A DNA stretch of 63,992 nt, the filler included, from Candidatus Hydrogenedentota bacterium (GTDB lineage: Bacteria; JBFMHD01): NCBI GenBank assembly GCA_040752395.1. It is 12 parts of 12 records of this genome, joined end to end, with 100 filler letters (N's around TTAATTAATTAA, not from the genome) between each part and the next. Parts side by side here need not be neighbours in the genome. Positions count along the whole stretch, not along the records: positions 5,805 to 11,417 come from JBFMHD010000181.1; positions 11,518 to 17,116 come from JBFMHD010000182.1; positions 17,217 to 22,812 come from JBFMHD010000183.1; positions 22,913 to 28,496 come from JBFMHD010000184.1; positions 28,597 to 34,139 come from JBFMHD010000185.1; positions 34,240 to 39,781 come from JBFMHD010000186.1; positions 39,882 to 45,386 come from JBFMHD010000187.1; positions 45,487 to 50,975 come from JBFMHD010000188.1; 4 more parts are not named here. One strand, 5' to 3'. Position 1 is the stretch's first letter, and every line of letters starts with the position of its first letter. Below the pieces are notes generated by a model that worked only from the letters and a program-made list of their open reading frames with translations, was not told where the DNA came from and searched no databases. Made by a program: the position numbers and the translations under genes. This document shows, piece after piece, positions 11,143 to 61,980 of this stretch.

Positions 11143-11363
11143 ACTTTGTGCCTCTGTGTCTCTGTGCCTTCTCCTCCTCTGAAAAACGCTGTAACTCTAA
11201 TAATTCGGGGTACAGGCTACAGGCTACGGACTACAGCCGGCTGGAGCCCGAAGCCCGGAGCCTGAAGTCCGGAGCCTGAAGCCAACATATCATCTTTAGT
11301 TTTTCATACGTTGTGCCTCTGTGCCTCTTTCGTTATCTTTCTTTCCGTTATCTTGCATCTTGC
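11143..11363 (-). repeat. Mosaic intergenic element (upstream TAG, GCAAGA heptamers, module C, module B, terminal SD module, octamers, ATG)
   Basis: Terminal module 11171-11204; ATGAAAAACTAAAGATGATATG 11286-11307. Confidence 0.9.
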
Positions 11364-11517
11364 CTATAACAATCTTAATTTAGTAACCCGTGGATCAAGA
11401 ATAACCTCATCATGTTCNNNNNNNNNNNNNNNNNNNNNNNNNNNNNNNNNNNNNNNNNNNNTTAATTAATTAANNNNNNNNNNNNNNNNNNNNNNNNNNN
11501 NNNNNNNNNNNNNNNNN

Positions 11518-11924
11518 AGCAAGAGGCAAGAAGCAAGAAGCAAGATTATGGAATCCCACTGAAGACCGAGGGAATACAGTATACTGCTTCCCTGAAACGT
11601 GAGACACTTTAAAGGGGAGGGAAAGAGGCACAAAGGCACAAAGTATGAAAAAAATAGGAGTTAGGAGTTCGTAATAATAGATACGAGCTCCGAGCTCCGA
11701 ACTTTTTCGAAGGAGTTTTCATGAGCGCGGGTTGCGCTCTACACTATTGTGTTATTGGGTTCTTGGGTTATTGGGTTCTTGGGTTTTTGCGCTCTACACA
11801 ATATATGAAAAACTAAAGATGATATGTTGGCTTCAGGCTCTGGGCTTTTGGCTCCAGCCGGCTGTAGTCCGTAGCCTGTAGCCTGTAGCCCGAATTATTA
11901 GAGTTACAGCGTTTTTTGAAGGAG
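11518..11924 (+). repeat. Longest mosaic element copy (at least 407 bp, 5' end in gap), containing most modules
   Basis: GCAAGAA heptamers, CCCTGAAACGTG module, GGCACAAA, GGAGTTA hairpin, GCGCTCTACAC-(TTGGGTTA)n-GCGCTCTACAC, modules C and B, terminal module 11894-11924. Confidence 0.9.
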
Positions 11925-11934
11925 AGATTAATTT

Positions 11935-12597
11935 TTAATGTTTTATTTTGGCTTTCGGATAATTTATAAGAATTTTTTTGTAGGTCTCGAGTCTTCTTTT
12001 AATTAAATCGAGTTTGTATTTTGCATCCCAGGACCAGGGACTATCTGGAAAATTATTAACAACTTCTTTATAATACTCTTTAGCTAAAGTCAAATCCTGA
12101 TAACGTTCTGTGTATCGTTCAAAGATAGAAATCAATCGAATATGCTTTTTACTTTTTTTTCTTTTTACTCCGATAGAGCCGGCAGATTGAAATGGTCTTC
12201 TAACAGGACTTACTCTGTGTAGACTATGATAAAAAATATGACCGAGTTTATAATAATAATAAGCCTCGTCACCGCCTGCCTCATATCTCGTTCGTGCAAA
12301 TATATCTTTCTCGTAGTAATATTGACCAAGAATTGATTTACCATTATACGCACCTGGTTTTTTAGAAACAACGGCGAGTTGAGAAAGATGTTTATCGAGG
12401 AGATGATAGGCTTCAGTGATTTGAATCATACGTTCACAACATTCTTTAGATAACTCATACGGGTTATTGTCAGGATGATTTTGTTTCACAGCATTTCTAT
12501 ACGCATTTTTTAAAGTCTTTTTGTTATACGGATAGGATATTTCAAGCAGCTGGCAGGCCTCAACAATTTCTGGAGAGATTATAGTTGTGCTCATCAT
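11935..12597 (-). CDS. DnaJ (J-domain) protein with TPR-like C-terminus
   Basis: LKNAYRNAVKQNHPD, ITEAYHLL; YYYKLG and NFPDSPW. ATG 12597 is likely because the 12651 extension reads through repeat-like sequence. Confidence 0.75.
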   Translation of the reverse strand: MMSTTIISPEIVEACQLLEISYPYNKKTLKNAYRNAVKQNHPDNNPYELSKECCERMIQITEAYHLLDKHLSQLAVVSKKPGAYNGKSILGQYYYEKDIFARTRYEAGGDEAYYYYKLGHIFYHSLHRVSPVRRPFQSAGSIGVKRKKSKKHIRLISIFERYTERYQDLTLAKEYYKEVVNNFPDSPWSWDAKYKLDLIKRRLETYKKILINYPKAKIKH

Positions 12598-12718
12598 TTT
12601 AAAGAATAATCCCCTGAATACAGAGAACCAAAGACCGAACTTAAGAACCACACCACAAGACCGATGGAGGATACTTAAAAATTTATATTAAATGATAAAG
12701 AAATGCAATATAAAACAC

Positions 12719-12746
12719 TCAAGAATTATGTAAACCTTGTCGATAT
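12719..12746 (+). promoter_or_regulatory. Possible sigma28 (FliA) promoter
   Basis: TCAA-N16-GTCGATAT upstream of murA-flg operon. Confidence 0.3.
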
Positions 12747-12839
12747 TTAATATTGTGGTTTCTTCTGTAAAATAAAGATGATGAGACCCTAATTTTTATC
12801 ACTTGAATAGAAAAGAGAAACTACGGAGTTAATTAGACT

Positions 12840-14102
12840 GTGGATAAATTTGTTATCACAGGTGGTAGAAAGCTTGAAGGCGAAGCAGAGATTAGCGGCT
12901 CTAAGAATGCTACCTTGCCTCTTATAGCAGCTACTTTGTTATCGCGCGATAGATTCTTACTAAAAAATGTTCCTGATTTAAAAGATATATTAACTATGAC
13001 TGCTGTTTTAAGAACGCTTGGAGCTTTATGTGAAATAGATACTTCAAAAAAAATACTTGAGATTAATACCTCTAAAATTAAACGATACGAAGCTCATTAT
13101 GACCTTGTAAGAAAGATGAGAGCCTCTGTTGTTGTGCTCGGACCACTTCTTGCAAGATATGGGAGAGCAAAGGTATCGTTACCAGGGGGTTGCGCAATAG
13201 GTACAAGACCAATTGATATACATCTTGCAGGATTACAAAGGCTGGGTGCTGATATCTCAGTTAATCAGGGATATATAGAAGCTTTAGCCCCGCGTGGACT
13301 AAAAGGAGCGGAGATAGTATTAAAATTTCCTTCAGTTGGTGCAACTCAGAACATTATGATGGCTGCTACGCTTGCTTGTGGTAAGACCGTTATAAAAAAT
13401 GCAGCTAAAGAGCCTGAAAATAAGACTCTCGCAGAATTTTTAAATAAGATGGGTGCCAAAATAGAGGGGGCCGGAACTCATATTATAATGATAGAAGGTG
13501 TTGACGAACTTAAAGGAGTTGATTTTGATATCCCACCGGATCGTATTGAAACAGGGACTTTTCTTATGGCTGGCGCTATCACAGCAGGTAAAGTGAGTGT
13601 GAGACCAGCTATCCCAGCTGAAAATAAAGCTTTATTAGAAAAACTCCGGGAGATGGGTTATGAGTTTGCACAAGGAAAAGATTTTATAACTATTCTACCA
13701 GAGAAACCAGCTAAACCAACTAATGTTAAAACAGCAGTCTATCCTGGTTTTCCCACTGATTTACAGGCACAGTTTATGGTTCTTTGCTGTTTATGCAAAG
13801 GTAAATCTGTTATGACAGAGACGATTTTTGAAAACAGGTTTATGCATACAAGCGAGTTAAAAAGGCTCGGTGCTGATATAAAAGTTGAGGGTAATAAGGC
13901 GATAATAAATGGTGGTAAAAGATTGATAGGTGCACCTGTTATGGCTTCTGATTTAAGAGCAAGTGCTGCTCTTATACTTGCAGGTCTTGTAGCTAAAGGT
14001 AGAACTGAGGTAATGAGAGTTTATCATATAGATCGCGGTTATGAGAGGTTTGAGGAGAAACTAAGTAAACTTGGTGCGAGTGTTAAACGCATACAGAGAT
14101 GA
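12840..14102 (+). CDS. murA: UDP-N-acetylglucosamine 1-carboxyvinyltransferase
   Basis: SGSKNA, LPGGCAIGTRPIDIH, YPGFPTDLQ, IFENRFMH, HIDRGYE. Confidence 0.97.
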   Translation: MDKFVITGGRKLEGEAEISGSKNATLPLIAATLLSRDRFLLKNVPDLKDILTMTAVLRTLGALCEIDTSKKILEINTSKIKRYEAHYDLVRKMRASVVVLGPLLARYGRAKVSLPGGCAIGTRPIDIHLAGLQRLGADISVNQGYIEALAPRGLKGAEIVLKFPSVGATQNIMMAATLACGKTVIKNAAKEPENKTLAEFLNKMGAKIEGAGTHIIMIEGVDELKGVDFDIPPDRIETGTFLMAGAITAGKVSVRPAIPAENKALLEKLREMGYEFAQGKDFITILPEKPAKPTNVKTAVYPGFPTDLQAQFMVLCCLCKGKSVMTETIFENRFMHTSELKRLGADIKVEGNKAIINGGKRLIGAPVMASDLRASAALILAGLVAKGRTEVMRVYHIDRGYERFEEKLSKLGASVKRIQR

Positions 14103-14125
14103 GCAATGACGGAGGTATCTAATCG

Positions 14126-14950
14126 ATGATACGAGGTCTTTACACAGGCGCTATCGGAATGTATATGAGAATGAACCAGCATGACGTTATTGCTAATAAT
14201 ATTGCCAATGTCGATACTACAGGTTATAAAGCTGATAGAATTATCTTTAAAGCTTTTCCAGATAAAGTAGCAAGCAGATTAAATGATGATATAGAAAGAT
14301 TTATAGATGGTTCTATTATTGATAAGGCGCCGAAAGTTGGTAAAATTGGTACCGGTGTAGAAATTAACGACCTTTATTCTAATATGGCACAGGGACAATT
14401 ACAGGAAACAGATAGCCCGTTTGATTTAGCGATACTTGGTAATGGGTTTTTTGCTGTTCAGACACCGGATGGTATTAAATATACTCGGAATGGTGCGTTT
14501 ACTGTTAATAGTGAGGGTATTTTGATGACAGAGGCGGGTTATTCTGTACTTGGTGAGTCAGGATTAATTGTTGTTTTGGATGATAATAATTTTGTTGTAC
14601 GGGATGATGGCAGTATTGTTGTCAATCTTAATGATGATAAGCGGCCACCAAACGAATTTGAACAGACAATTGTTTCGGATAAAATTAAAATAGTTACATT
14701 TAAAGAACCGCGACAACTTGATAAGTATGGTCATAATCTTTTTGAACCGACTGAAGAGAGCGGTCATCCTGAACCTGCGATTGATGTGAGAATAAAACAG
14801 GGAGCAATAGAAAAATCAAACGTTAATATTGTTGAAGAGATGGTGTTACTTATAGATGTTATGAGGGCTTATGAGGCTAATCAAAAGAGTGTCCAGGTAC
14901 ATGATGATTTGTTAAGACAGGCATGGAGTGAGGTTTCAAGGTTTGCCTGA
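14126..14950 (+). CDS. flgF: Flagellar basal-body rod protein FlgF/FlgG family
   Basis: IANNIANVDTTGYK, YTRNGAF, EKSNVNIVEEM. Confidence 0.8.
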   Translation: MIRGLYTGAIGMYMRMNQHDVIANNIANVDTTGYKADRIIFKAFPDKVASRLNDDIERFIDGSIIDKAPKVGKIGTGVEINDLYSNMAQGQLQETDSPFDLAILGNGFFAVQTPDGIKYTRNGAFTVNSEGILMTEAGYSVLGESGLIVVLDDNNFVVRDDGSIVVNLNDDKRPPNEFEQTIVSDKIKIVTFKEPRQLDKYGHNLFEPTEESGHPEPAIDVRIKQGAIEKSNVNIVEEMVLLIDVMRAYEANQKSVQVHDDLLRQAWSEVSRFA

Positions 14951-14970
14951 TTTTAGTCGATAGTTTAAGA

Positions 14971-15165
14971 GAGGTAAGATAACGAAAGAAGCAAGAAGCA
15001 AGATAATTGGGTTATTGGGTTATTGGGTTATTGGGTTATTGCGTTATTGCGTTATCTTGCTTCTTGCCTCTTGCTTCTTTCGTTATCTTTCTTTTTTGTT
15101 ATCTTGCTTCTTGCTTCTTGCTTCTACTTGATATTATTATAGTTACAGCGTTTTTCAGAGGAGGT
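14971..15165 (+). repeat. Mosaic element between flgF and flgG providing the flgG SD
   Basis: AGATAACGAAAGAAGCAAGA inverted arms around (TTGGGTTA)4(TTGCGTTA)2; terminal module 15133-15164. Confidence 0.9.
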
Positions 15166-15174
15166 ACATAACCT

Positions 15175-15966
15175 ATGATGAGGTCATTATGGACTGCAGC
15201 AAGCGGAATGACAGCTCAACAATTTAATGTTGATGTTATTTCTAATAACCTTGCAAATGTTAATACCACAGGTTATAAGAAAACAAGAACAGAATTTGAG
15301 GATTTATTGTATGAAACATTAAAACTGGCAGGCACACCTGCCTCAGTCGGTTCACAGATTCCAACAGGTATTCAGGTGGGACACGGGGTTAAACCTTCAT
15401 CAACCAAGGGGTTGTTTACACAGGGTGATTTTATGCAGACAGATGACCCATTAAACATTCTTATTGAGGGCGAGGGATTTTTTCAGGTGGAACTTCCTGA
15501 TGGTACTATAGGTTATACGCGGGATGGCTCGTTTGAAATAGATTCAACGGGTCAGATGGTTACAAGTCAGGGTTATAGATTAATCGATTCTGAGATAGTT
15601 ATACCTGAAGATACACTGGATATAATGATTAATGCAGAGGGTGTTGTGAATGTGAGGATTGCGGGTCAGACTGCGTTGCAGGAAGTAGGGCAGATTAACC
15701 TTGCTAATTTTATTAATCCCTCGGGTCTTTTGAAGGTAGGTGAGAACGTGTTCAAGGAAACAGCTGCAAGCGGTGCACCGATTGTTGGTGCGCCTGGTGA
15801 AAATGATAATGGTGTATTAAGACAGGGGTTTCTTGAATTATCAAATGTCAAAGTCGTTGAAGAAATGGTTAATCTTATAACCGCTCAACGAGCTTATGAA
15901 TCTAACTCTAAAACAATACAGGCAGCTGATAATATGCTTGCTACCGCGGTTAATCTGAGAAGATAG
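15175..15966 (+). CDS. flgG: Flagellar basal-body rod protein FlgG
   Basis: MRSLWTAASGM, ISNNLANVNTTGYK, FEDLLY, LELSNV, AQRAYE. Confidence 0.95.
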   Translation: MMRSLWTAASGMTAQQFNVDVISNNLANVNTTGYKKTRTEFEDLLYETLKLAGTPASVGSQIPTGIQVGHGVKPSSTKGLFTQGDFMQTDDPLNILIEGEGFFQVELPDGTIGYTRDGSFEIDSTGQMVTSQGYRLIDSEIVIPEDTLDIMINAEGVVNVRIAGQTALQEVGQINLANFINPSGLLKVGENVFKETAASGAPIVGAPGENDNGVLRQGFLELSNVKVVEEMVNLITAQRAYESNSKTIQAADNMLATAVNLRR

Positions 15967-15982
15967 CAAGGAGACTTAATCC

Positions 15983-16915
15983 GTGAGATTTAAATTGTGT
16001 GCTGTTTTATTATTGATTTTTATCTCTTTTCAATTAGATGCTGTAACTATTAAATTGAAAGACTCTGTAGTTGTAAGAGATGACAATATCTATCTTTCTG
16101 ATATTTGCGAGTCCATTAATGATAAGAATTTATTAATCTGCGAGTCACCAGCTCCTGGAACGAAACGTATTATACCGTCACGTCTTGTTGAAATAAGATT
16201 AAAACAAGCGCATCTACGTGATATAAAATTTGAGGATAGCGACAGGTGCGAGGTATACAGGTCTGCTGATATCGTCTCTGATGAAATGATTAAAGACAAT
16301 ATATTAGAATTCTTAAACAAAAACAGACCCGAAGGCGTTTTTAATCCTGAGTATAGATTCATAAAATTACCAGGTAAAGTTTATGTTAAAGAGGGTAAGA
16401 TAAGATTAGAGGTTCAAGCAAAGAATAGAAAAATTAATTTCTATGGGAGTAATTTTCTTGAAGTGAAAGTTTATGTAGATGATGAGATACAAAAAAATAT
16501 AAATATATGTGTTGATATTGAGAGTATGGTTGAAGTTGCAGTTGCGGCAAGAGAGATTCCGCGTGGAAAAATTATAAGCGAGGAAGATATCTTTCTTACA
16601 CTTAAACGATATAAAGAGATCCCGAAGGATGCTTATGACAAACTTGAACTTTTAATCGCTAAGAGAGTAAGACATTTTATTGATAAGGATATCTGTCTTA
16701 CTCCGCGAGATGTTGAGATACCGCCTGTTGTAAAGAGGGGGGATGAGGTTACTTTAATTTCAAAGATAGGGAATATAGTTATCTCTGTTAAAGGCGAAGC
16801 AAGAGAGGATGCCAGATTAGGAGACAAAATCTGGGTTAAAAATATACAATCAGGTAAAATGGTTCAGGGAGTCGTAACTGATTGTAATAGAGTTAGTGTT
16901 GGAGGTAATTTATGA
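15983..16915 (+). CDS. flgA: Flagellar P-ring formation chaperone
   Basis: Signal peptide, SAF domain VAAREIPRG, VKRGDEV, VKNIQSGK; lies between flgG and flgH. Confidence 0.88.
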   Translation: MRFKLCAVLLLIFISFQLDAVTIKLKDSVVVRDDNIYLSDICESINDKNLLICESPAPGTKRIIPSRLVEIRLKQAHLRDIKFEDSDRCEVYRSADIVSDEMIKDNILEFLNKNRPEGVFNPEYRFIKLPGKVYVKEGKIRLEVQAKNRKINFYGSNFLEVKVYVDDEIQKNINICVDIESMVEVAVAAREIPRGKIISEEDIFLTLKRYKEIPKDAYDKLELLIAKRVRHFIDKDICLTPRDVEIPPVVKRGDEVTLISKIGNIVISVKGEAREDARLGDKIWVKNIQSGKMVQGVVTDCNRVSVGGNL

Positions 16916-17116
16916 AAAGAGTTATAACATTAATTGGATTTATATTTTTATATTCTCAAATCTGTTATGGGGTATCTTTATGGGAGCCAGGCGGTTCGCT
17001 ATTTACTGAATTAAAAGAAAGAAATGTGGGTGATGTTATCACGATAATTGTTACTGAGCGTGCTGATGCTCAGCATAAATCTAATGATGAATTTGATAAA
17101 GAGGTAAAACTCGATG
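16912..17116 (+). CDS. flgH: Flagellar L-ring protein, partial (runs into gap)
   Basis: SLW...SLF...VGDVITIIVTE; synteny. Confidence 0.8.
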
Positions 17117-17216
17117 NNNNNNNNNNNNNNNNNNNNNNNNNNNNNNNNNNNNNNNNNNNNTTAATTAATTAANNNNNNNNNNNNNNNNNNNNNNNNNNNN
17201 NNNNNNNNNNNNNNNN

Positions 17217-17439
17217 GGGTTCTTGGGTTATTGCGTTTTTGCGCTCTACACAAAGGATGAAAAACTAAAGATGATATGAAAAGAGTCGTGAGTCACAAGT
17301 CGCAAGTCGTGAGTCAAAACAGGACTCGAGACTCAAGACTTTTCAGCAGGCTCTGGGCTTTTGGCTCCAGCCGGCTGTAGTCCGTAGCCTGTAGCCTGTA
17401 CCCCGAATTATTAGAGTTGCGAAGTTTTTCAGAGGAGGT
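17217..17439 (+). repeat. Mosaic element (D-C-E-B-terminal) providing SD of the PIN/TRAM gene
   Basis: Closely similar to 55190-55398; terminal module 17407-17438. Confidence 0.9.
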
Positions 17440-17446
17440 GAGAGAG

Positions 17447-18457
17447 GTGATAGTATTAAGGATTATTTTTTTATTCTTATTCATATTTAGTGGTATTTTG
17501 ATAACTGAAAAGTTTAGACCACAACAGGGGATATCTATTATTGGTATATTTGCAGGAATATTTATAGCTCTTTTAGCATGGGGGCTTGAACTGGCTTTAA
17601 TGAATGTTCCTAAAAAGAAGATATTTTTAGGAATGATAGGGTTATTTTTGGGTATACTCTTTTCGCGATATATAACATTATGGCTAATTTCAGGTCTCTA
17701 TGTATTAGGTATGGAGAGAGCAGAGTTTAATTTATTATCCAATGTCTTAAAGGTGCTAATAAGTATACTTGTAATATACCTGACAATGATATTTGTAATA
17801 AGAAAGGTACCGGAGATTGCGAATATCCTTGATAGTTTCAAAGAGAGCAGATTTGTAGAAGGCAGTCCAAAGGTTATTGACACCAGCGTGATTATCGATG
17901 GCAGGATATATGATATTCTTAAAACTGGTTTTATTGAAGGGAATGTAATTATACCGAGATTTATTCTTGAAGAGATACAGCAGATAGCAGATTCGTCAGA
18001 CACGATTAAACGTAATAGAGGCCGGAGAGGACTCGAGATACTTAATCGCTTACAGAAAGAGCTTGAGGACAGGGTTCTGATAGTTGAGGACGATTATGAA
18101 GACATAAAAGAGATAGATTCTAAACTTGTTAAGATCGCTCAAACTTATCATGCTAAACTTATAACCAATGATTATAATTTAAATAAAATTGCTGAGCTTC
18201 AGAAAGTGGTTGTACTTAATGTTAATGAGTTGACCAATGCAATGAAACCCGTGGCAGTTCCTGGTGAAGAGATGAGGATTCAGGTTGTAAAAGAGGGTAA
18301 GGATGCGGGTCAGGGTGTCGGTTATTTATCTGATGGCACAATGGTTGTTGTTGAACAGGGCAAACGATTTATAGGTCGTGAAGCACGAGTTATTGTTACA
18401 AGTCTGCATCAGACCGCAGCTGGCAGAATGATATTTACTAAGTTAAAAGAGATGTAG
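17447..18457 (+). CDS. Membrane PIN/TRAM domain protein (YacL family)
   Basis: TM helices, [36 protein letters not shown] 17447 follows GGAGG. Confidence 0.92.
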
Positions 18458-27869: not shown

Positions 27870-27877
27870 TGTAAATT

Positions 27878-51379: not shown

Positions 51380-51380
51380 G

Positions 51381-51679: not shown

Positions 51680-52069
51680 GTTATGACGGCTTTTTTTCTT
51701 CTTAAAATATTTTACATTTGGTAAATTTTTAAAATCATTATCCTGTGTCCATACCTCTGCTTGATTTATTCTTGCTGTTGCATATACAATACTATCAGCC
51801 ATCGGAATTTTATATTCACAACTTATTTTTGCCGCAGTTAAAGATATATCTTCATCTAACAATATATTCTTATATCTTTTTAACTGTGCTATAACCTGCA
51901 AAGCCTATTCTTCACCTGCTTCAAGTAATATCTTTTTAAATATTTCATATAAAATTATTGTAGGTATTATTATATTACCTTCATTTTCTAATATCTCATC
52001 TGAAAAAATTTTAGAATTTGGTCCATCAGTAAAATATTCAACTCATCCGCTTGAATCTATTAATATCAT
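51674..52069 (-). pseudogene. vapC: VapC (PIN) toxin with two in-frame stops
   Basis: MILIDSSG*VEYF...GEE*ALQ...MADSIVYATA..WTQDNDF. Confidence 0.8.
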
Positions 52070-52275
52070 ATTCTGTCATCCCTCTCTCTATCTATATCTG
52101 TATTTATTCCTTTTATAAAACCTTTCATTGTTTTTATATCTTTTCCTAATACCATTTCGATCCTTCCATTATATGGTATCATAACCATTTTTTCACCGGG
52201 TTTTATTTTATAATACTTCCGAATATCCTTTGGAATTACCACTTGATATTTTGGTGATACTAATACTTGTTCCAT
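52066..52275 (-). CDS. AbrB/MazE-type antitoxin
   Basis: VSPKYQVVIPKDIR; ATG 52275 after GGAGG. Confidence 0.85.
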   Translation of the reverse strand: MEQVLVSPKYQVVIPKDIRKYYKIKPGEKMVMIPYNGRIEMVLGKDIKTMKGFIKGINTDIDRERDDRI

Positions 52276-52416
52276 TTTGTTACCTCCAAATCGATATATA
52301 TTATGTGTTACTATAATAGCATCGATATTAATCTTTGCCAACTATTTTTTCGATTTTGTTTTTAAACCTATAGTAAATTTGATTTATGAATAATCAGTCA
52401 TTCATAAGTATAATCT

Positions 52417-53739
52417 ATGAAAAACAGGGATGATTGTCAAGAAAAATTAGTTCAGGCCTGCCTGAACTCTTCCCTTAAATTTTTCATTGATTTTCCATAC
52501 GTTTTTTACTATCTTTCGCTTATGAACGATTATTATATTATTATAGCCTCCAATGAAAAGTATGGAATATGTGAATATTCTCAAAAGCCAGAATGCAAAG
52601 CTCCGGGAGAAAAGTGTCCGTCATTTACAACTCACTATACTCTTTACGATGAATTGCCTATCTATGCTGCGGAGTTGCAAGAGTGGGAACCGAGGGTTTC
52701 TGAGGAATTTTTCAGATGTGCAGCCGGGATTTGCTATTGTGGGGAACCGAAACGAACAGGCGAAGTAATCAGAGCAGTTTCCAACCGGACAAAGGCTTTA
52801 AGGAAAATGTGGGAGGAAAAGGAGAAACCTCTCCCTAATTCCGTCATAGAACAAGATCCATGGGAAATCATTATCCGGAGTTTAGGTATTAGTAGTAAAA
52901 AGGTGCTTAGCTCGATATTACAACTTTGCCAATTGGAATTACAGGGATCCCAAGACGAGTTATTTAAAGCTATTCAATCAGTTCAATCTAAACTCAGGTT
53001 TGATATTGGTGTATCATGGCCAACGATAGATGAAATTTGTGAATTTGCAGAGAGAGCTGGGCTCGCTGCAAAATTAACAGGAGCAGGAGCTGGTAGTGAT
53101 GTAGTGGTTTTTGGCAAAACAAAAGCACAAGTTGGTAATTTTCTTAGAGGACTGGTGATTAAGCGAAGAGGGAGAAAGTATAATCCGATCCTTCATTTTA
53201 AACAATCTTACTGGGCAGATGGAGATTTCACCTCGTCTCCTGTTTCATTTATCAAGAATGAACCAAGGAATATTTTGTTCAAAATTGATGTTTCAGAGAG
53301 AAGCCAAAATAGAAGAAAGGTCACAGAAGAGCTAAATCGAATTAAAGGAGAATTATTGAAAAAAACAAACGGAATAGAAATTTATCCAGCTGGCGATGGA
53401 TTTGTTGCCTCTTTCACCTGGCCGGAGGATGCATTAGAGATGGCAAGGCGCCTTTATAGGAGAATTGAAATAGAAGTACCAGAAGCTATATTGAGGGTTG
53501 GCGTTTTTTCAGGAATAAAAGATTTCTACAAATATCCTGGCGGTAAGGAAATGGAAGAATTTGTCCATGTCACACATATAGAAGAGGCGTTAAAGGAACT
53601 CAATAAGGAAAACCATGTATTGATTTGTAAAAATACTTATGAAAGACTTCCACAAGAATGGCAAAAGGAATTTGAAGAATCTATCAAAGTTCGTAATAAA
53701 ATTCCCACTTATATAACTCGAAAACCATGGATCATATAA
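52417..53739 (+). CDS. GHMP-kinase C-terminal-like region fused to a class III nucleotide cyclase-like domain
   Basis: AKLTGAGAGS; ILFKIDV, AGDGFVASF, ALEMA, LRVGV, HIE, VLICKNTYERL. Confidence 0.6.
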   Translation: MKNRDDCQEKLVQACLNSSLKFFIDFPYVFYYLSLMNDYYIIIASNEKYGICEYSQKPECKAPGEKCPSFTTHYTLYDELPIYAAELQEWEPRVSEEFFRCAAGICYCGEPKRTGEVIRAVSNRTKALRKMWEEKEKPLPNSVIEQDPWEIIIRSLGISSKKVLSSILQLCQLELQGSQDELFKAIQSVQSKLRFDIGVSWPTIDEICEFAERAGLAAKLTGAGAGSDVVVFGKTKAQVGNFLRGLVIKRRGRKYNPILHFKQSYWADGDFTSSPVSFIKNEPRNILFKIDVSERSQNRRKVTEELNRIKGELLKKTNGIEIYPAGDGFVASFTWPEDALEMARRLYRRIEIEVPEAILRVGVFSGIKDFYKYPGGKEMEEFVHVTHIEEALKELNKENHVLICKNTYERLPQEWQKEFEESIKVRNKIPTYITRKPWII

Positions 53740-53772
53740 AGGACTTTACAAATGAGCAAGCTTGTCAACTTC

Positions 53773-53863
53773 GGCTAACAGAGCGTATCTGGCTATGTGC
53801 CTTCGGCACTCCGTCTAAATCCAGCCTATCGGCTGGACTTCAGATACGTTCGGAACGTTATAT
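53773..53863 (+). other. attC-like recombination site
   Basis: GGCTAAC-AGAG-CGTATCTG...CAGATACG-N8-GTTATAT with two internal hairpins. Confidence 0.6.
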
Positions 53864-53908
53864 GGAATTCGGCAACATAAAAAGATTGGGAAATTGAGGT
53901 AATCTGTA

Positions 53909-53989
53909 ATGGAGGGAAAAGAAAAGTTGAAATTATATCTGAAAACAACTATTCCTAACTATAAATTTGCTGAATTAAAGAATATCTAA
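53909..53989 (+). pseudogene. PIN-domain N-terminal stub
   Basis: MEGKEKLKLYLKTTIPNY, preceded by GAGG. Confidence 0.35.
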
Positions 53990-54008
53990 AAAGAAACTGA
54001 AGTATCCT

Positions 54009-55151
54009 GTGTTAAAAATAGCTATTGATTGCAGAGAACTTGAAAAAATAAGATTTGGTATCGGTAGGTTTGTTAAAGGAATAATTGATTATCTTAATAA
54101 CTATCCAGTAGATATTGACATAACGTTAATCGTGTATGAGGGATATGATAAAACTCTATTTGATCTTAGCAAATACAGACTTATGGTATTTAAAAAGAAT
54201 TATCCCTTAATTATATTAGACCATATAATTATTCCGATTGAACTTAAAAAACATACCATAGATTTATTTTATTCGCCATATTATAAAATACCGATAAGAG
54301 GTAGATTTAAAAAAATAGGAATGATACATGATCTAAATATTATAAAAAGAGAGGTCGGTTACCCTCTCTGGAAACGGCTTTTATATAGATATCTTTTTAA
54401 GTTTTATTCAAGACAGATGAACAAAATAGTAACAGATAGTAATTATTCAAAACAGGATATAATTAATTATTTAAAGGTTGATGAAAAAAAAGTAAAAGTT
54501 ATATCTATACCGCTTGATAAAATATTTTTAATAGACTCTGCCCCTGGTCGCGAGCAGCAAACCAGAGATATATTCTTGTTTGTCGGTAATATTTTAAAAC
54601 ATAAAAATATTGAATTCCTTTTAAAAGTATATTCAAAACTTGAAACCTCTATAAGAAAGAGATATAAACTTATACTTGCAGGAAAGATAAATGATTATTA
54701 TAAAAAAAGACTGGAACGTTTGGGGTATTCTTTTGGACTTGGTAAAGAAGAGTTTGAGTTTTCTGGTTTTGTATCTGAAGAAGAGCTCGTCAATTTATAC
54801 AGAAGAGCAAAGATATTTTTGTTCCCTTCGTTGCTTGAGGGGTTTGGTGTGCCAGTAGTAGAAGCACAGGCTATGGGTGTCCCTGTTATCGCATCTGATA
54901 GGACATCTATACCTGAGGTTGCTTGTAATGCCGCGGTTTTATTGAATCCGTATAATGTGGATGAATGGGTTGAAACGATTCTAAAATTATTGAATAATGA
55001 AAATTTCAGGGATGAATTAATAAAAAGAGGCAAGAGTAATGTATCAAGGTTTAGTTTAGATAAGATTGGTTTGGAATTTTTTGATTTTATCCGCAACCAG
55101 GTCGTTTATTCTAACTCCGAACCCCAAACTTTTTCGCAGGAGTCAACATGA
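54009..55151 (+). CDS. GT4 glycosyltransferase
   Basis: IAIDCR, IHDL, HKN, FPSLLEGFGVPVVEA. Confidence 0.9.
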   Translation: MLKIAIDCRELEKIRFGIGRFVKGIIDYLNNYPVDIDITLIVYEGYDKTLFDLSKYRLMVFKKNYPLIILDHIIIPIELKKHTIDLFYSPYYKIPIRGRFKKIGMIHDLNIIKREVGYPLWKRLLYRYLFKFYSRQMNKIVTDSNYSKQDIINYLKVDEKKVKVISIPLDKIFLIDSAPGREQQTRDIFLFVGNILKHKNIEFLLKVYSKLETSIRKRYKLILAGKINDYYKKRLERLGYSFGLGKEEFEFSGFVSEEELVNLYRRAKIFLFPSLLEGFGVPVVEAQAMGVPVIASDRTSIPEVACNAAVLLNPYNVDEWVETILKLLNNENFRDELIKRGKSNVSRFSLDKIGLEFFDFIRNQVVYSNSEPQTFSQEST

Positions 55152-55398
55152 GCGCTTTTGCGCTCTACACTATTGTGTTATTGTGTTATTGTGTTATTGG
55201 GTTATTGCGTTTTTGCGCTCTACACAATATATGAAAAACTAAAGATGATATGAAAAGAGTCGTGAGTCAAAACAGGACTCGAGACTCAAGACTCAAGACT
55301 TTTCAGCAGGCTTTGGGCTTTTGACTCCAGCCGGCTGTAGTCCGTAGCCCCTAGCCTGTACCCCGAATTATTAGAGTTACAGCGTTTTTCAAAGGAGG
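55110..55398 (+). repeat. Complete mosaic element between two GT genes; supplies the upstream stop and the downstream SD
   Basis: AACTCCG heptamers, TTTTTCGCAGGAG, D-C-E-B, terminal module 55367-55398. Confidence 0.9.
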
Positions 55399-55402
55399 CC
55401 TT

Positions 55403-56353
55403 ATGTATAGAGATAAAAAAGTCGCGCTTGTTATACCTGCATATAATGAAGAAAAATTAATTCGACCCACTTTGCTTAATGTCCCGACAATAATAGACCA
55501 TATATATGTGATAAATGATGGCTCAATTGATAAGACAGAAGAGGTTGTAAAAGAAATGGCAAAAAATGATCCAAGAATTGAACTTATTAATCAAAAGAAA
55601 AATATGGGTGTTGGTGAGGCCATAATTACAGGATATAAAAGAGTGTTAAATGATGGTTACGATATCGCTGTTGTAGTTGGTGGTGATTACCAGATGCCAC
55701 TTAATGAAGTAAAAAATTTTTTAGACCCGTTAATTGAAAAAAGAGCTGATTATACTAAGGGAAACAGATTTTTGCCAGGGATGGGTGCTTTTGATCGGAT
55801 GCCAAAGATAAGATTAATAGGTAATATGTTGATAACTGCAATGACAAAAATTTCATCAGGTTATTATAATTTACTTGATGTTGTAGATGGTTATACCGCA
55901 ATCACAAGAGATACGATTAAACTTATAAACTGGGATATCGCATGGAAAGGTTATGGTTATCCTATGGATTTTCTTATTAGATTAAATACTGTGGGTGCAC
56001 GAATTCTTGATATACCACGAAGCGCTATTTATCTTGAGGGTGAGAGACAAAGCCAGATTAAAGGGTTAAGATATGCTATAAAAGTATCACCTATGCTTCT
56101 GCGTGGCTATTTCTGGCGATTATTTACAAAATATGGTTTTTATAATTTTCATCCGCTTTTGTTATTTTTTATTTGTGGTCTAACTTTTTTACCAGCAGGT
56201 TTAATTTTTGGGTTCTATCTTGTATATAAACAGTTTTTCATACAGATAGGGGTTAGTGGTCCGCAAGCGGTTTTTTGTGCACTCTTAATTATTACTGGTT
56301 TACAGTTTCTATTATTTGGTATGCTTTTTGATATGCATGAGAACAAGAGTTAA
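55403..56353 (+). CDS. GT2 glycosyltransferase (DPM1-like) with C-terminal TMs
   Basis: VIPAYNEE, NDGSID, KGNRF. Confidence 0.9.
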   Translation: MYRDKKVALVIPAYNEEKLIRPTLLNVPTIIDHIYVINDGSIDKTEEVVKEMAKNDPRIELINQKKNMGVGEAIITGYKRVLNDGYDIAVVVGGDYQMPLNEVKNFLDPLIEKRADYTKGNRFLPGMGAFDRMPKIRLIGNMLITAMTKISSGYYNLLDVVDGYTAITRDTIKLINWDIAWKGYGYPMDFLIRLNTVGARILDIPRSAIYLEGERQSQIKGLRYAIKVSPMLLRGYFWRLFTKYGFYNFHPLLLFFICGLTFLPAGLIFGFYLVYKQFFIQIGVSGPQAVFCALLIITGLQFLLFGMLFDMHENKS

Positions 56354-58094: not shown

Positions 58095-60218
58095 TTATGT
58101 ATCAACCTCTTTAGAGATGTAACATTCAAGTATATCTCCTACTTTGATGTCATTAAAATTTTCTACCAGTATCCCGCATTCAAAACCTTCTTTAACTTCT
58201 CGTACATCGTCTTTGAACCTCTTAAGAGAAGCTGGTCTGCCCTCGTAAAGCATAACACCATCCCTGATAATCTTTATTCTGCCTTTTCTATGAATATTCC
58301 CGCTTGTTACCAAACAACCACCAACGGTACCAAGATGCGAGATTTTAAATAGTTCTTTTATCTCAGCTTTACCATACAATTGTTCCACAATCTCAGGTTC
58401 AAGCATACCTTTTATCGCCATTTTTATATCATCAATGATTTGATATATAATATCATAGATTCGTATCTCGACTTTCTCTTTTTTGGCAAGCTCCAAAGCA
58501 CTCTCCAGAGTCCTTACCTGAAACCCAAGTATCATAGCATCTGAGGCACTTGCAAGAAGCACGTCACCATCATTGATAGCTCCGGTGCCGGTCGAAACAA
58601 GATGTACATTGATCTCATCTGTGCTTAATTTCAATAACATATCTGTTAAAGCTTCTACTGATCCTTTTCTGTCTGCTTTTAAAATAATGTTGAGTTGTTG
58701 TTTCACACCCTCTTTAACCTGTTTTGATATCTCTTCGAGTGTTATTTTTTTTCTAACGTTTAATCTGTCTGTTTTAGTCAGCTCTTTTCGCTTCTCAGAT
58801 ATAATTCTCGCTTCCCTTTCAGTTAGTGTAGCAGTTAATTTATCGCCCACCTCAGGTAACTCATTAAACCCAAGTATAAGAACAGGGTGCGAGGGATGAG
58901 CAACAGTAATTGGCTCCATTTTATCGTTAAACATATTTCTTATCTTACCAAAAACAGAACCACAAACAAAAGTATCACCAACTTCTAATGTTCCACGTTT
59001 AACAATCGCAGCACCTATTATACCTATCTTGGGGTCGATCCTTGACTCTATTATAGTAGCAGTGGCTTTTCTATGAGGATTGGCTTTTAATTCCATCATT
59101 TCAGCCTGAAATAATATCGCTTCAAGTAGTTGAGGTACAGCCTCGCCTGTTTTAGCAGATATCTTAATTACAATCGTTTTCCCACCCCATTCCTCAGGTG
59201 TAAGATTATACTCAACAAGTTGCTGTTTAATTCTGTCAGGACTAACATTCGGTAAATCACTTTTATTAATAGCAACGATAATGGGACAATTTGCTGATTG
59301 TGCGTGTCGTATAGCTTCAATTGTTTGTGGCATAATACCATCATCAGCAGCTATTACCAGAACTACAATATCAGTGACCTGTGCTCCGCGTGCCCGCATA
59401 GCTGTAAACGCCTCGTGACCAGGTGTATCTATAAAAGTTATAGTTCTACCATCATCTAAAGTTACCACACTTGCGCCTATATGTTGTGTTATACCACCGG
59501 CTTCAGTAGCAACTATATTTGTTTTTCTTATATAATCGAGCAAAGTTGTTTTGCCGTGGTCAACATGTCCCATCACTGTTACAATTGGTGGTCGTGGCTT
59601 TAAATCATCCACCCTGTCCTCTTCTTCACGACCTTCCTCAATATATAAACCAGAAACCCTGGCCTCAAACCCGAAATCAAGCGCTATTGTAGATGCTGTC
59701 TCTGCATCAATAGGCTGACTGAGCGTACAGAGATATCCTCCATCAACAAGTTTTTTTAAAACTTTAGCAGGTTCTACATTCATCTTTCTTGCAAGATCTC
59801 TAACTAAAATAGGGTTCTGAATCTCAATAACCCTTAATTCTTCTTTCTCTTCTTTTAGTTTACGTTTCTGTTCTGATATAATCTTATTAAGTATAATGTC
59901 TTCTTCTATGACCTCTCTTTGTTTCTTGGTTTTTATTTGTTTTTGGGGTTTCTTTTTTTCGATTTTTTGGGGGATTAAAGGTATCTCTTGCAGAGGTGGA
60001 GGTTTTACTTCAAGTGGTTCAATTTTTTTTTCTTCTTCAATTAAAGCCTTTGGTTTTTGTTTTGCTTTTTTTTCTTTGAACTTGTCTAGAATGAGTTTTA
60101 CAGTTTCATCATCAAGATTCTGCATTCTGTTTTTTACAGTAATGTTTTTATCTTTTAAAAATTCTATTATCGTATCACTTTTAACACCGCATTCTCGAGC
60201 CACTTCAAAAATTCTCAT
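58095..60218 (-). CDS. infB: Translation initiation factor IF-2
   Basis: MGHVDHGKTTLLD, DTPGHEAF, SLKRFKDDV. Confidence 0.98.
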   Translation of the reverse strand: MRIFEVARECGVKSDTIIEFLKDKNITVKNRMQNLDDETVKLILDKFKEKKAKQKPKALIEEEKKIEPLEVKPPPLQEIPLIPQKIEKKKPQKQIKTKKQREVIEEDIILNKIISEQKRKLKEEKEELRVIEIQNPILVRDLARKMNVEPAKVLKKLVDGGYLCTLSQPIDAETASTIALDFGFEARVSGLYIEEGREEEDRVDDLKPRPPIVTVMGHVDHGKTTLLDYIRKTNIVATEAGGITQHIGASVVTLDDGRTITFIDTPGHEAFTAMRARGAQVTDIVVLVIAADDGIMPQTIEAIRHAQSANCPIIVAINKSDLPNVSPDRIKQQLVEYNLTPEEWGGKTIVIKISAKTGEAVPQLLEAILFQAEMMELKANPHRKATATIIESRIDPKIGIIGAAIVKRGTLEVGDTFVCGSVFGKIRNMFNDKMEPITVAHPSHPVLILGFNELPEVGDKLTATLTEREARIISEKRKELTKTDRLNVRKKITLEEISKQVKEGVKQQLNIILKADRKGSVEALTDMLLKLSTDEINVHLVSTGTGAINDGDVLLASASDAMILGFQVRTLESALELAKKEKVEIRIYDIIYQIIDDIKMAIKGMLEPEIVEQLYGKAEIKELFKISHLGTVGGCLVTSGNIHRKGRIKIIRDGVMLYEGRPASLKRFKDDVREVKEGFECGILVENFNDIKVGDILECYISKEVDT

Positions 60219-61804
60219 TAAATTTGTTTCTCCATTTTTTTATTTATTTCTTTCATAAATTTGCTAATCTCCTTTTTGTTATAACCGGCATAGGAAAGCC
60301 AGGCATCGAAATCACCCCGCTCTACATAACCCTTCAACTCATCTAAAGATAGGCTCAAAGAGAGCTCTTTTAATTCTTCTATGTTTGCTGCTTCTTTACC
60401 ATCTTCGAAAATAAAAGATTCTATTTCGAGTTCTTTTTTCTCTGGTTCTTTCTTTTCTTCTTTTGGTTCCTTGACTTTTTCTTTCTCCTTCAGCTCTTTT
60501 ATAACCTTCTCCTTCTCTAAATCAGCTTTTTCTTTAAGTTTTAATACCGCCTTCAATATCTTCTCAGCACTCTTTAACCCGATACCATCAATTTTTGCAA
60601 GGTCTTCAGGTGTTTTATCAAGTAAATTACGCACAATGGTATAACCACTTGCGATAAGTTTCTGTAAAGTCTTTTCACCAATACCATCAAGGTCCTTCAC
60701 AGCTGTATCTTCAAATGCTCTCTGTATCCCCTGGATAGCATCAAACTCAGAAAAAGCCGCTTTCTTTTTAATCTCAGCATCACTCTTTATATCTATCTTC
60801 CAACCAGTAAGTTTAGCAGCTAATCTCACATTCTGTCCTGCTTTTCCTATGGCGAGTGATTGTTTATCCTGCGGAACTATTACTGATGCTTCCTTTTCTG
60901 CTTCATTTATTTCTATTGTAATAACAGGTGCGGGTGATAATGCATTTATAATAAAATTATTTATATTTTCATCCCATTTAATTATATCTATTTTTTCACC
61001 GTTTAATTCTCTCATAATAGTCTGAATCCTTGTTCCGCGCTGCCCAACACAGGTGCCGATAGGGTCTATCTCCTGCTTTGTACTCTTTATAGCTACTTTT
61101 GTTCTGTAACCGGCTTCTCGCGCTATCTCTTTAATCTCAAGGGTATTGTCTGCTATTTCAGGAACCTCAGACTCAAATAACCGTCTGACTAAATCAGAAT
61201 GAGTGCGAGAGACAATCACCTGAGCCTGGGAACCTTTTGTAAGCTCTTTAACCTCAAGTATTATTACGCGTATCCGCTGCTCAGGTACATAGGTATCATT
61301 TGGCATCTGCTCTTTTTTAGGTAGCAATGCCTCAACCCTACCTATTGTCAAAAATACATTGCCTTTGCTGATACGCTGAATCCTTGCATTAACAAGTTCT
61401 CCTTGTTTGTTTTTAAACTCATCATATATCATCCCTTTTTCAGCACGCCTTAACTCTTGCTGAAAAACGTTTTTTACTGTTAAAGCAGCTATTCTATTAA
61501 AATCTTTTGGTTTGATCTCAAGTTCAATAAAATCATCTATTTTCACGGACTTCTTATAATTCTTTGCTTCTTCAAAAGATATCTCATACTGTTTGTCTAT
61601 CAGGTTTTCAACAACCCGACGTGTTGAAAAAATTCTTATGTTACCTTTCTTTTTATCAAACTCTACTTTAACATTATCAGTTTCACCATAATTCTTCTTG
61701 TACGCTTTCAAAATCGCTTCTTCAATGATATCGATTAATATATTTTGCGGTACACCCTTTTCTTCTTCTAATTCTTTTAATGCTGATACAAACGCTGTTT
61801 CCAT
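60218..61804 (-). CDS. nusA: Transcription factor NusA with HhH and extra C-terminal domain
   Basis: AREAGYRTK, CVGQRGTRI, AIGKAGQNVRLA; true ATG 61804. Confidence 0.95.
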   Translation of the reverse strand: METAFVSALKELEEEKGVPQNILIDIIEEAILKAYKKNYGETDNVKVEFDKKKGNIRIFSTRRVVENLIDKQYEISFEEAKNYKKSVKIDDFIELEIKPKDFNRIAALTVKNVFQQELRRAEKGMIYDEFKNKQGELVNARIQRISKGNVFLTIGRVEALLPKKEQMPNDTYVPEQRIRVIILEVKELTKGSQAQVIVSRTHSDLVRRLFESEVPEIADNTLEIKEIAREAGYRTKVAIKSTKQEIDPIGTCVGQRGTRIQTIMRELNGEKIDIIKWDENINNFIINALSPAPVITIEINEAEKEASVIVPQDKQSLAIGKAGQNVRLAAKLTGWKIDIKSDAEIKKKAAFSEFDAIQGIQRAFEDTAVKDLDGIGEKTLQKLIASGYTIVRNLLDKTPEDLAKIDGIGLKSAEKILKAVLKLKEKADLEKEKVIKELKEKEKVKEPKEEKKEPEKKELEIESFIFEDGKEAANIEELKELSLSLSLDELKGYVERGDFDAWLSYAGYNKKEISKFMKEINKKMEKQI

Positions 61805-61810
61805 TTTAAA

Positions 61811-61980
61811 TCCTCCCTCAAAAAACCTCGTAACTATAATAATATCAAGTAGAAGCAAGAAGCAAGAAGTCTGACTCCTGACTCCTAACTCCTAATTTTG
61901 AATTTTTAATTTAACTTTCTGCCTCTGTGCCTTTGTGCCTCTGTGCCTTTCCTTTGAATCTTTCAATCTTTCAATCTGTA
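61811..61980 (-). repeat. Mosaic element providing the nusA SD
   Basis: AAGATTGA, GGCACAGA, GGAGTCA, GCAAGAA repeats; terminal module 61811-61843. Confidence 0.88.

Follow-up and report, generated by a model that had tools for sequence, protein, structure and literature searches.

Why should near-identical copies of one short sequence stand directly before the start codons of genes that share no function? The question is posed by a stretch of DNA of 63,992 bases (hereafter the window) from the draft genome of a Candidatus Hydrogenedentota bacterium (~35% GC), in which a module that we call T recurs as the last member of a mosaic intergenic repeat. A first-pass annotation of this DNA had described 13 copies of T and had read them as an undescribed element that colonises translation-initiation regions. 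We find that the family is real, polar, modular and of high identity, as that annotation had it, and that its terminal module, T, carries a near-consensus ribosome site. The account we favour, with somewhat better than even confidence, is that T is the ribosome-site-bearing 3' module of a species-specific, high-copy mosaic, a transcribed hairpin spacer or leader cassette that would have spread by recombination and slippage. The window itself is a pseudo-molecule in which 13 size-sorted contigs (11 of them measuring 5.4–5.7 kb, sizes descending) are joined by 12 runs of 100 N (5705-5804, 11418-11517 and ten more); 11 of these runs hold the linker TTAATTAATTAA and one, at 30831-30930, is a plain gap. 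Contigs that stand side by side across the N linkers are neighbours by construction and not in the genome.

A fuzzy search of the window with the 31-nucleotide (nt) T sequence, allowing up to 7 substitutions, returned 10 copies with 0–5 mismatches. Three diverged copies were read in the sequence itself: a 16-nt partial copy at 34349(-), a copy with a 1-nt deletion at ~40066(+) and one with ~8 mismatches at 61811(-). Together these account for all 13 copies of the first-pass annotation. The 14-nt core of T, searched with up to two mismatches, matched the window 13 times against 0.67 +/- 0.85 times in shuffled sequence; ten of the matches are family copies, and the other three (34629-, 51995- and 56414+) lie outside the family, at the level expected by chance.

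Using a curated list of 52 window genes for the polarity and ribosome-site tests, we found a co-oriented gene start within 35 nt of the 3' end of T for 11 of the 13 copies, the same eleven-gene polarity that had been noted at first pass, compared with 6.1% of random non-coding positions and strands (binomial P = 2.9e-12). In 10 of these 11 gene-linked copies, the GGAG of T lies 0–11 nt from the start codon. T has a U-rich tract directly 5' of the ribosome site. The longest match to the Shine-Dalgarno consensus measured 4–9 nt (mean 5.7) before the 11 T-linked genes and 0–6 nt (mean 3.8) before 36 other genes (Mann-Whitney P = 2e-4). T therefore supplies the strongest ribosome-binding sites of the window, and both tests, of position and of Shine-Dalgarno match, bear out the earlier proposal that T gives downstream genes their ribosome-binding site.

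The genes so served have no common function. Our Pfam scan covered 40 open reading frames (ORFs) of the window and supported flgF, flgG and flgA, nusA, trpF, the ptsN-hprK-ptsH-ptsI-lepA group, the pullulanase gene, several glycosyltransferase genes, and ispD, ispF, gltX and cysS; it agreed with the earlier statement that the T-linked genes are functionally unrelated. Where both flanks of a copy lie in one contig, the neighbouring genes are co-directional in four of four cases (flgF-flgG, GT4-GT2, pullulanase-F5/8 and the gene at 34341). The pullulanase case reaches across the plain gap: 30704-30830 and 30931-31057 carry the same ~127 nt (the region 3' of the pullulanase gene and the start of module D), and because the gap is flanked by this unmerged contig overlap, no real break separates the pullulanase gene from the element and the F5/8-domain gene. 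Two of the starts deserve comment. The PIN-TRAM gene begins with GTG at 17447, 8 nt after GGAGG, and the ATG of the PMT-family glycosyltransferase gene at 40097 abuts GGAG, which leaves its true start uncertain. The partial copy at 34349-34364 overlaps the 3' end of the upstream ORF.

What precedes T is a series of further modules. In 13 elements the modules keep the order D-C-E-B-F-G-T, some of them being optional and the number of units variable. Copies differ at the left end, which may be D, E, F or another module, and always have T at the right end. C and T are the unique modules of the mosaic, and modules B, E and F/G are inverted tandem arrays of 7- or 8-base units, mostly folding into long imperfect hairpins. 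All six upstream modules that had been named before (B, C, D, E, F and G) proved to be present as described. Module B forms a 26–31-bp imperfect hairpin around CAGCC/GGCTG in 7 of 7 copies, with a mismatch at roughly each seventh pair and several G.U pairs. In module E, units of the GTGAGTC type pair with units of the GACTCRA type; at 14976-15090, the paired arms are formed by AAGAAGC and CTTGCTT units and the loop by TTGGGTTA octamers; and module D opens with a 6-bp GC hairpin. A G-quadruplex was considered for the (TTGGGTTA)n arrays and rejected as a conserved feature, four GGG runs being kept in only 2 of 4 complete arrays. Self-comparison of the window yielded 31 repeat-bearing intervals, 3.5 kb in sum. 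Merged tandem arrays numbered 93, 36 of period 7 and 23 of period 8, and 46 of these 59 period-7/8 arrays lie in non-coding DNA, which makes up ~15% of the window.

At its upstream edge, too, the mosaic can be fitted to the neighbouring gene. In three cases, the gene on that side ends on the TGA with which a module opens: the TGA of F ends ptsN and the arginase-family gene, and the TGA in the CATGAGCGC of D ends the GT4 gene. With the upstream stop codon inside the first bases of the module, the element therefore spans the spacer from stop codon to ribosome site. The 5' edge of D resembles a degenerate T followed by ATG. We considered whether this ATG opens a small ORF, either a relay of the MIRU kind or a leader peptide, and rejected the idea: the ORFs end after ~10 to 42 codons, in different modules, and neither frame nor length is conserved.

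Two further features deserve mention. Module K, another shared module of ~80 nt, has a small hairpin of its own, after which come GGGGAGG and GGCACAAA octamers. At 61871-61893, 11655-11669 and 28823-28848, upstream of nusA and elsewhere, the repeated unit itself includes a ribosome-site word (TAGGAGT, AGGAGAC), so that motifs resembling ribosome sites stand there in tandem. The individual elements, the T copies and the arrays that fall within genes are collected in Table 1.

Table 1. Elements of the mosaic family, copies of T, module K and arrays lying in genes, by position in the window.
Feature	Coordinates	Strand	Organization or remark
Element before DRTGG-domain gene (start 11142)	11143-11363	-	inverted F/G piece, GGCACAR array, C, B hairpin, T, three GGCACARA
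Orphan long element from contig end	11519-11928	+	inverted G array, K, TAGGAGT array, D, C, B, degenerate T
flgF-flgG spacer, contig-internal	14976-15166	+	AAGAAGC/CTTGCTT arms, (TTGGGTTA)n loop, then F, G, T; flgG ATG 15175
Element before PIN-TRAM gene	17217-17441	+	D-C-E-B-T; contig begins within D
Element 3' of lepA	22931-23048	-	D-C-E, truncated by contig end
ptsN-hprK spacer	27867-27931	-	F-G without T; ptsN stop codon 27931-27929 is the TGA of F
Element before ptsN (ATG 28390)	28395-28496	-	B(end)-F-G-T; contig ends within B
Between pullulanase gene and F5/8-type-C-domain gene (ATG 30556)	30567-30830	-	D-C'-G-T
Element before pullulanase gene (ATG 33968)	33961-34139	-	E-B-T; contig ends within E
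Partial T, ATGTTTTTCAGAGGAG, 16 nt	34349-34364	-	~6 nt 5' of ATG; gene runs off contig
F-G without T	38072-38139	-	TGA of F is the arginase-family gene stop (38129-38127)
Element before trpF (ATG 39662)	39663-39779	-	D in 'empty' form (no octamer array), C'-G-T
Element before PMT-family glycosyltransferase gene	40001-40098	+	F-F'-G, degenerate T
Orphan element, contig-internal	51203-51388	+	E-B-F-G-T; no gene start after
Complete element filling GT4-GT2 spacer, contig-internal	55115-55398	+	D-C-E-B-T; GT4 stop 55149-55151; GT2 ATG 55403
Element before nusA	61809-61970	-	GGCACARA array, AGGAGTY array, G, diverged T
T copies	11174-11204, 28399-28429, 30567-30597, 33974-34004, 39665-39695	-	31-nt fuzzy search
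T copies	11894-11924, 15133-15163, 17407-17437, 51348-51378, 55367-55397	+	31-nt fuzzy search
Module K	5273-5377 (-) and 11560-11643 (+)		opposite orientations, two contigs
Octamer array (GGCACAGA)n in HATPase_c gene	9767-9801	-	24-nt (8-residue) in-frame insertion relative to G001 orthologue
Family-like arrays (inverted G units and CGAACAT units), ~90 nt	44430-44517	-	in frame in ORF 43221-45122

We propose that the element is transcribed within the mRNA as an intercistronic spacer or 5' untranslated region (5'-UTR). Its hairpins would then act on the mRNA as signals for processing, stability or insulation, in the manner of the RNase III-processed hairpin of the hmw1 5'-UTR, and T would provide an AU/U-rich leader and the ribosome site AGAGGAGG at a working distance from the start codon. 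The predicted RNA folds are consistent with structure at the RNA level: gene-sense stability equalled or exceeded antisense stability in 11 of 12 elements, by 9–23 kcal/mol in 6 of them. The repeat corresponds to no Rfam family. At the gathering threshold, an Rfam search of the whole window gave tRNA as its sole match, in keeping with what had been supposed at first pass, and at E of at most 1 the regions 51076-55420 and 11100-17480 gave generic hairpins below threshold (18–32 bits against cut-offs of 47–135).

Is T confined to this organism? A collection scan with T found at least one locus, a 2.2-kb contig (C128) binned with a genome that we refer to as G001; it was the only locus among the matches listed. 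C128 begins inside a C-B-T element (positions 1-140), which over 130 nt shows 97% identity to the window copy 11787-11916; the contig could have been mis-binned and stem from a close relative of the window organism, or could reflect transfer. Beyond C128, T was not found elsewhere in G001, in its 40 relatives or in 25 genomes of its phylum. Plasmid collections yielded only a simple-repeat match of 45 nt, in a Vibrio plasmid, and phage collections yielded nothing. The single match among metagenome contigs was judged to be due to chance, lying as it does within a coding region of a contig of 42.5% GC. G001 itself is far from the window organism: its NusA is 42% identical to that of the window, and its flagellar cluster 67–76% identical at the DNA level. 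Because the window NusA is 40–47% identical to all 23 of its matches in the phylum of G001, the window organism may lie outside that phylum; a protein atlas query with the same NusA returned mixed phyla and no placement.

The spacers of G001 nevertheless follow a similar plan. At the five orthologous junctions compared (flgF-flgG, rimP-nusA and the regions upstream of ptsN, trpF and yacL), all five in G001 carry other heptamer arrays that run up to the ribosome site. Because the arrays at these junctions are different ones, the spacer architecture is older than the window family, and T looks like a species-specific, homogenised version of it. G001 also has a hairpin family of its own (loci L029-L058), built from TGGTAAC arrays in direct and inverted form plus an end module of 23 nt, with 53 copies at up to three mismatches and no match to a reversed control. 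Among its 29 distinct copies, 21 by a strict automatic count, which required an ORF of at least 50 codons after the ribosome site and start codon, and 23 by eye precede a gene in this way, 2 precede tRNA genes, and 4 have another or no clear context; the end module lies a median of 6 nt from the ribosome site. One copy of this family sits between a tRNA gene and tuf.

Similar arrays recur more widely among the relatives. Arrays of the octamer TTGGGTWA occur in 6 of 41 related genomes (reversed control, 1 match), at loci where many further 7–8-mer arrays are present. Period-7/8 arrays lie within 260 nt upstream of nusA in 9 of 22 phylum genomes, against 0 of 22 for a control within the nusA coding region. 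In G001 to G006, the rimP-nusA spacer always holds an inverted-array hairpin that ends just 5' of AAGGAGG, but its units are TGGTAAC in G001 and G004, GATTTTR in G002, G003 and G005, and TAAGTCR in G006. The layout is constant and the units differ; thus architecture and position are shared among these relatives, and sequence is not. The window family would then be a local version of an architecture common to distant uncultured bacteria, in which a heptamer-array hairpin occupies the spacer between co-directional genes and ends within a few bases of the ribosome site. It is possible, though we hold the idea only tentatively, that the lineage keeps self-renewing inverted-heptamer hairpin spacers whose sequence is wholly replaced from one species to the next while the architecture, and its place a few bases ahead of the ribosome site, are kept, and that in the window organism T has become a copy-and-paste initiation cassette.

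The two G001 copies before tRNA genes bear on another reading, in which T is a mobile promoter: a -10-like element in its AT-rich 5' half would give each gene its own transcription start, and the hairpins would end or stabilise the preceding transcript. A purely translational role leaves those tRNA copies unexplained, and hexamers resembling TATTAT, TATAGT and TACAAT do occur within T. The likeness extends to the notion of reused or mobile promoters as set out in the accessible text of Nijveen, Matus-Garcia and van Passel, 2012 (PMC3575422), where near-identical upstream regions precede non-homologous genes of one genome; the part shared here, however, is the ribosome site with its leader. A sigma-70 consensus scan flagged only 1 of 13 T copies (30619->30590, 9/12 matches), which lends no support to a promoter but is weak evidence either way, as the organism's own consensus may differ. 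In three stretches, promoter-like sites numbered 64, 107 and 44 against shuffle means of 68.9, 84.3 and 50.8, the middle stretch alone being higher, by less than 2 standard deviations. Most copies have no -35-like hexamer at 16–18 nt, the B-linked class of T has only a weak -10-like hexamer, and the copies sit at junctions of the kind found inside operons (flgF-flgG, and rimP-nusA in relatives). Nor are the hairpins followed by a terminator-like T-run, save a short one after E. Inspection by eye for sigma-54-type and other promoter motifs gave none that we put forward. We regard a promoter role as improbable.

Arrays of the same kind also lie inside genes, where they speak to how the repeats arise. 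The two tabulated cases are in frame. The ORF 43221-45122 encodes a 633-residue phosphodiesterase-family protein whose G001 homologues, of 436–563 residues, match only on either side of the arrays. A second octamer array in the HATPase_c gene (9612-9643) encodes the C-terminal tail of the protein. In addition, an octamer array of the CAACGCAA type (6946-6979) encodes the linker NNAITQQRNNAN of a 1081-residue Fe-S/FAD oxidoreductase; the linker of the G001 orthologue is unrelated and of nearly equal length (net change one residue). From the in-frame arrays in genes it follows that arrays come into being, or are inserted, in the DNA itself and persist where the reading frame survives.

Module D shows such a change as well. 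Its octamer array is flanked by an 11–13-nt direct repeat, GCGCTCTACAC, and the trpF copy of D has one GCGCTCTACAC and no array, so that D exists in filled and empty forms. This fits either an insertion with duplication or a deletion between direct repeats. The first of these would suit a reading of the family as a selfish, non-autonomous mobile element, similar to miniature inverted-repeat transposable elements (MITEs) or REPINs, which is mobilised in trans and inserts before start codons, with the copies that supply a ribosome site being tolerated. The near-identity of the T copies (0–5 mismatches in 31) against 67–76% DNA identity of orthologous genes in the nearest genome would also suit it, as would a 95–97% identical copy on a contig binned with a distant genome, the orphan copies away from gene starts, and the arrays and element pieces within ORFs. 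Breaks in the assembly point the same way: of the 24 internal contig ends, 9 are no more than 40 nt from a family repeat, in line with the earlier remark that contigs break at copies. We nonetheless consider a mobile element unlikely. At the level of the element, no terminal inverted repeats were found, as had been noted before, and no target-site duplications, the inverted repeats lying within modules and the direct repeat only around the array in D. No transposase, REP-associated tyrosine transposase (RAYT), Y1 transposase or reverse transcriptase was found among the 40 window ORFs scanned. Unrelated arrays occupy the same junctions in distant relatives; a variable left end and a linear order with optional modules suit recombination or deletion better than cut-and-paste; and deletion between direct repeats explains the two forms of D equally well. 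The earlier picture of a colonising element, which implies a transposing parasite, is not supported, on the same grounds, namely the missing transposase and element ends and the other heptamer arrays at five of five G001 junctions.

The alternative to transposition is that recombination or gene conversion, together with array slippage, both spreads the copies and keeps them alike, and that no dedicated transposase takes part. T itself occurs in two subtypes that go with the module preceding it: all 5 B-linked copies have G at position 8, and 5 of the 7 G-linked copies have T there. The mixed forms at 15133+, 51348+ and 40066+ may be read as recombination between copies, judging by their sequences. 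Near-identity, mixing of subtypes, a fixed order with optional modules and the lack of transposon ends together favour recombination, gene conversion and slippage, the mode of spread that we propose for the spacer cassette.

A further reading is that the arrays are a neutral by-product of replication slippage, which would produce 7–8-mer arrays wherever DNA is dispensable, and that the mosaics are in part assembly chimeras of a short-read metagenome bin. Heptanucleotides are, by one published account, the commonest long simple repeats of many bacterial genomes, arising through polymerase slippage (Mrazek, 2007, as summarised in PMC4679880), and the assembly is fragmented, with the unmerged overlap across the 30831-30930 gap as an example. 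Four elements, however, are contig-internal between unique genes (14976-15166, 51203-51388, 55115-55398 and, with the overlap merged, 30567-30830), and an independent assembly, G001 contig C128, shows the C-B-T order at 97% identity over 130 nt. Slippage also leaves the unique modules C and T, the near-identity and the strict polarity (P about 3e-12) unexplained. We judge this explanation very improbable.

The closest published parallel is the TAACTGA repeat of marine Beggiatoaceae, some Cyanobacteria and Bacteroidetes (MacGregor, 2015; PMC4679880), and with oriented heptamer repeats abutting start codons already in print, the earlier description of the family as undescribed was too strong. 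According to the accessible text of that paper, 147 of 170 sets of TAACTGA repeats point at a start codon, most ending a few nt away; each set has a single unit type in 2–6 copies; and the repeats usually replace a ribosome site, which is present in ~10% of the repeat-bearing spacers. As far as that text goes, the two families are alike in being tandem intergenic heptamers that point to a start codon and stop a few nt short of it, in serving unrelated genes, in sometimes overlapping ORF ends or lying within ORFs, and in their patchy phylogenetic spread. The same orientation is seen in 11 of 13 T copies and in 21–23 of 29 copies of the G001 family, and two units of G001 come close in sequence, TGGTAAC (TAACTGG when permuted cyclically) and TTACTGA each being one base off TAACTGA. 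Near-variants occurred in G001 only, and the tandem-repeat table of the window holds no TAACTGA arrays. In contrast to the TAACTGA repeats, the window family is a hairpin mosaic of many unit types and unique modules, with a near-consensus ribosome site last.

For repeats that end beside start codons, MacGregor suggested a binding protein (PMC4679880, accessible text), and the arrays and T could likewise be sites for a global RNA- or DNA-binding protein, such as S1, a cold-shock protein or one of CsrA type, which would make the family a post-transcriptional regulon. The U-rich tract right before the ribosome site and the arrays of ribosome-site-like words (TAGGAGT and GGCACAGAGG) are what such a protein might bind, and the TTGGGTWA unit recurs in 6 of 41 related genomes, with 1 match for its reversed control. 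Against this, the T-linked genes are functionally unrelated, no candidate protein was found, and the units differ wholly at the same junction among related genomes, which argues against one conserved specificity. A regulon of this kind appears decidedly improbable.

For the action of the hairpins in our preferred account, that of a transcribed spacer, the hmw1A leader of Haemophilus influenzae could be the best experimental model for B, E and F/G, by analogy. There, in the accessible part of the report (PMC12721329), a transcribed heptamer repeat in the 5'-UTR forms a long hairpin whose cleavage by RNase III raises expression and is also needed for changes in repeat number. In both systems, a CU-rich heptamer array pairs with a purine-rich arm upstream of a gene. 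The hmw1A leader differs, as far as that part of the report shows, in being a single phase-variable locus of a pathogen, with no dispersed family and no shared ribosome-site module (PMC12721329).

Several classes of bacterial repeat share one trait or another with the mosaic. Among the cyanobacterial short tandemly repeated repetitive (STRR) heptamer arrays and the long simple sequence repeats with 5–11-nt units, period 7 dominates and most lie in intergenic DNA, differing between related genomes and being ascribed to slippage; the window family resembles them in each respect, with 46 of 59 period-7/8 arrays in non-coding DNA. Slippage was the explanation given for heptanucleotide long simple repeats by Mrazek, 2007, as summarised in the accessible text of PMC4679880. 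Our literature search found no description of STRR sequences as an ordered mosaic or with a shared ribosome-site end module. We know of none in which they form ordered mosaics with conserved unique modules or share such an end module.

BOX elements of Streptococcus pneumoniae and BIME/REP elements of enterobacteria are modular mosaics with hairpins, co-transcribed with their neighbours; they are not known to contain an internal transposase, to be anchored to start codons or to supply a ribosome site, and REP/BIME elements usually follow genes. The window family is like BOX in its fixed module order and variable internal copy number, a likeness of architecture from which we claim no membership; it differs from BOX in that its host belongs to another phylum and its modules are themselves 7–8-mer arrays. 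REP and REPIN sequences are short imperfect palindromes, often in inverted pairs, that go with a RAYT gene in the genome. Palindromic modules do occur in the window family, and the scan of 40 ORFs, which covered this part of the genome only, showed no RAYT or Y1 transposase; polarity towards start codons is not a known feature of REP. Unlike MITEs and Correia elements, it has no inverted repeats at the element ends, its left ends differing and its right end always being T. Mycobacterial interspersed repetitive units (MIRUs) are tandem units of 40–100 bp with small relay ORFs, located in operon spacers and oriented with transcription. In both MIRU and the window family, the ends touch the upstream stop codon and the downstream initiation region; the window family has the upstream stop in the first bases of a module in three cases, but its small ORFs are unconserved.

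A number of observations weigh against the transcribed-spacer account and temper our confidence in it. Two of the 13 T copies (11894+ and 51348+) face no gene start, and the start of the DRTGG-domain gene is 31 nt from T, with three GGCACARA octamers in between. The predicted unpaired probability of the ribosome site, with 110 nt of upstream context, was only 0.10–0.48 in the eight copies with correct start coordinates (the coordinates used for the gene at 34341 and for nusA being a few bases off), and it was lowest where CU-rich G arrays precede T; some copies could therefore mask the ribosome site in these models and repress rather than promote initiation, though this is only a hint from a small sample. 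The fold advantage of the sense over the antisense strand could reflect the G+T richness of the sense strand in the predictions. For hairpin B, variation among the 7 copies was too small for a test of covariation. G001 and its phylum are distant, and the conserved junctions rest on gene order, their spacers not being alignable. Our sample is 64 kb of contigs that break at repeats and is biased toward repeat-ended contigs. The existence of the family, its polarity, the position and strength of its ribosome sites, its hairpin potential, its occurrence in relatives and the gain and loss of arrays at the DNA level are direct observations; transcription, processing, use of the ribosome site, a role at the RNA level and the mode of spread are what we infer. 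In sum, the observations of the first-pass annotation are confirmed, and its interpretation is partly supported.

The two orphan copies lie in different surroundings. The T at 11894-11924(+) faces the 3' end of a convergent DnaJ-domain gene. Convergent with the copy at 51348 are a small AbrB/SpoVT-like ORF and a PIN-like ORF (51674-52341, -), which from their sequences probably form a toxin-antitoxin pair of the vapBC type.

The repeats also affect how this genome is assembled and annotated. A longest-ORF rule placed false TTG starts within the G and T modules, in their CTTGCTT units, and over-extended five genes into the repeat (17417, 27929-28444, 39006-39710, 40052 and 60218-61858). In the same way, automated gene calling in this genome will be prone to N-termini that are too long. 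Family repeats disrupt short-read assemblies of the lineage, and ORF calls can be lengthened or interrupted where stop codons, false TTG starts and in-frame arrays fall within the repeats.

The components of the family are known one by one: oriented heptamer repeats at start codons, modular intergenic mosaics and reused upstream regions. Our literature search found no description of a mosaic repeat with a ribosome-site-donating end module, nor of a lineage-wide inverted-heptamer spacer. If our account is right, a shared leader and ribosome site, set after a structured spacer, would have been standardised across many unrelated housekeeping genes (flgG, nusA, trpF, ptsN and those for glycosyltransferases and pullulanase), a rare natural example of initiation signals copied from gene to gene. 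The family would also join three subjects, heptamer simple repeats, intergenic mosaic repeats and translational control. Lineage-wide spacers, if real, would imply selection on RNA structure, and possibly a generation of arrays that is coupled to transcription or to RNase III; on that tentative reading, the T cassette would be a natural counterpart of the insulator-plus-RBS (ribosome-binding site) parts of synthetic biology. The constant layout and differing units across relatives offer a testable case of selection on structure with free turnover of sequence.

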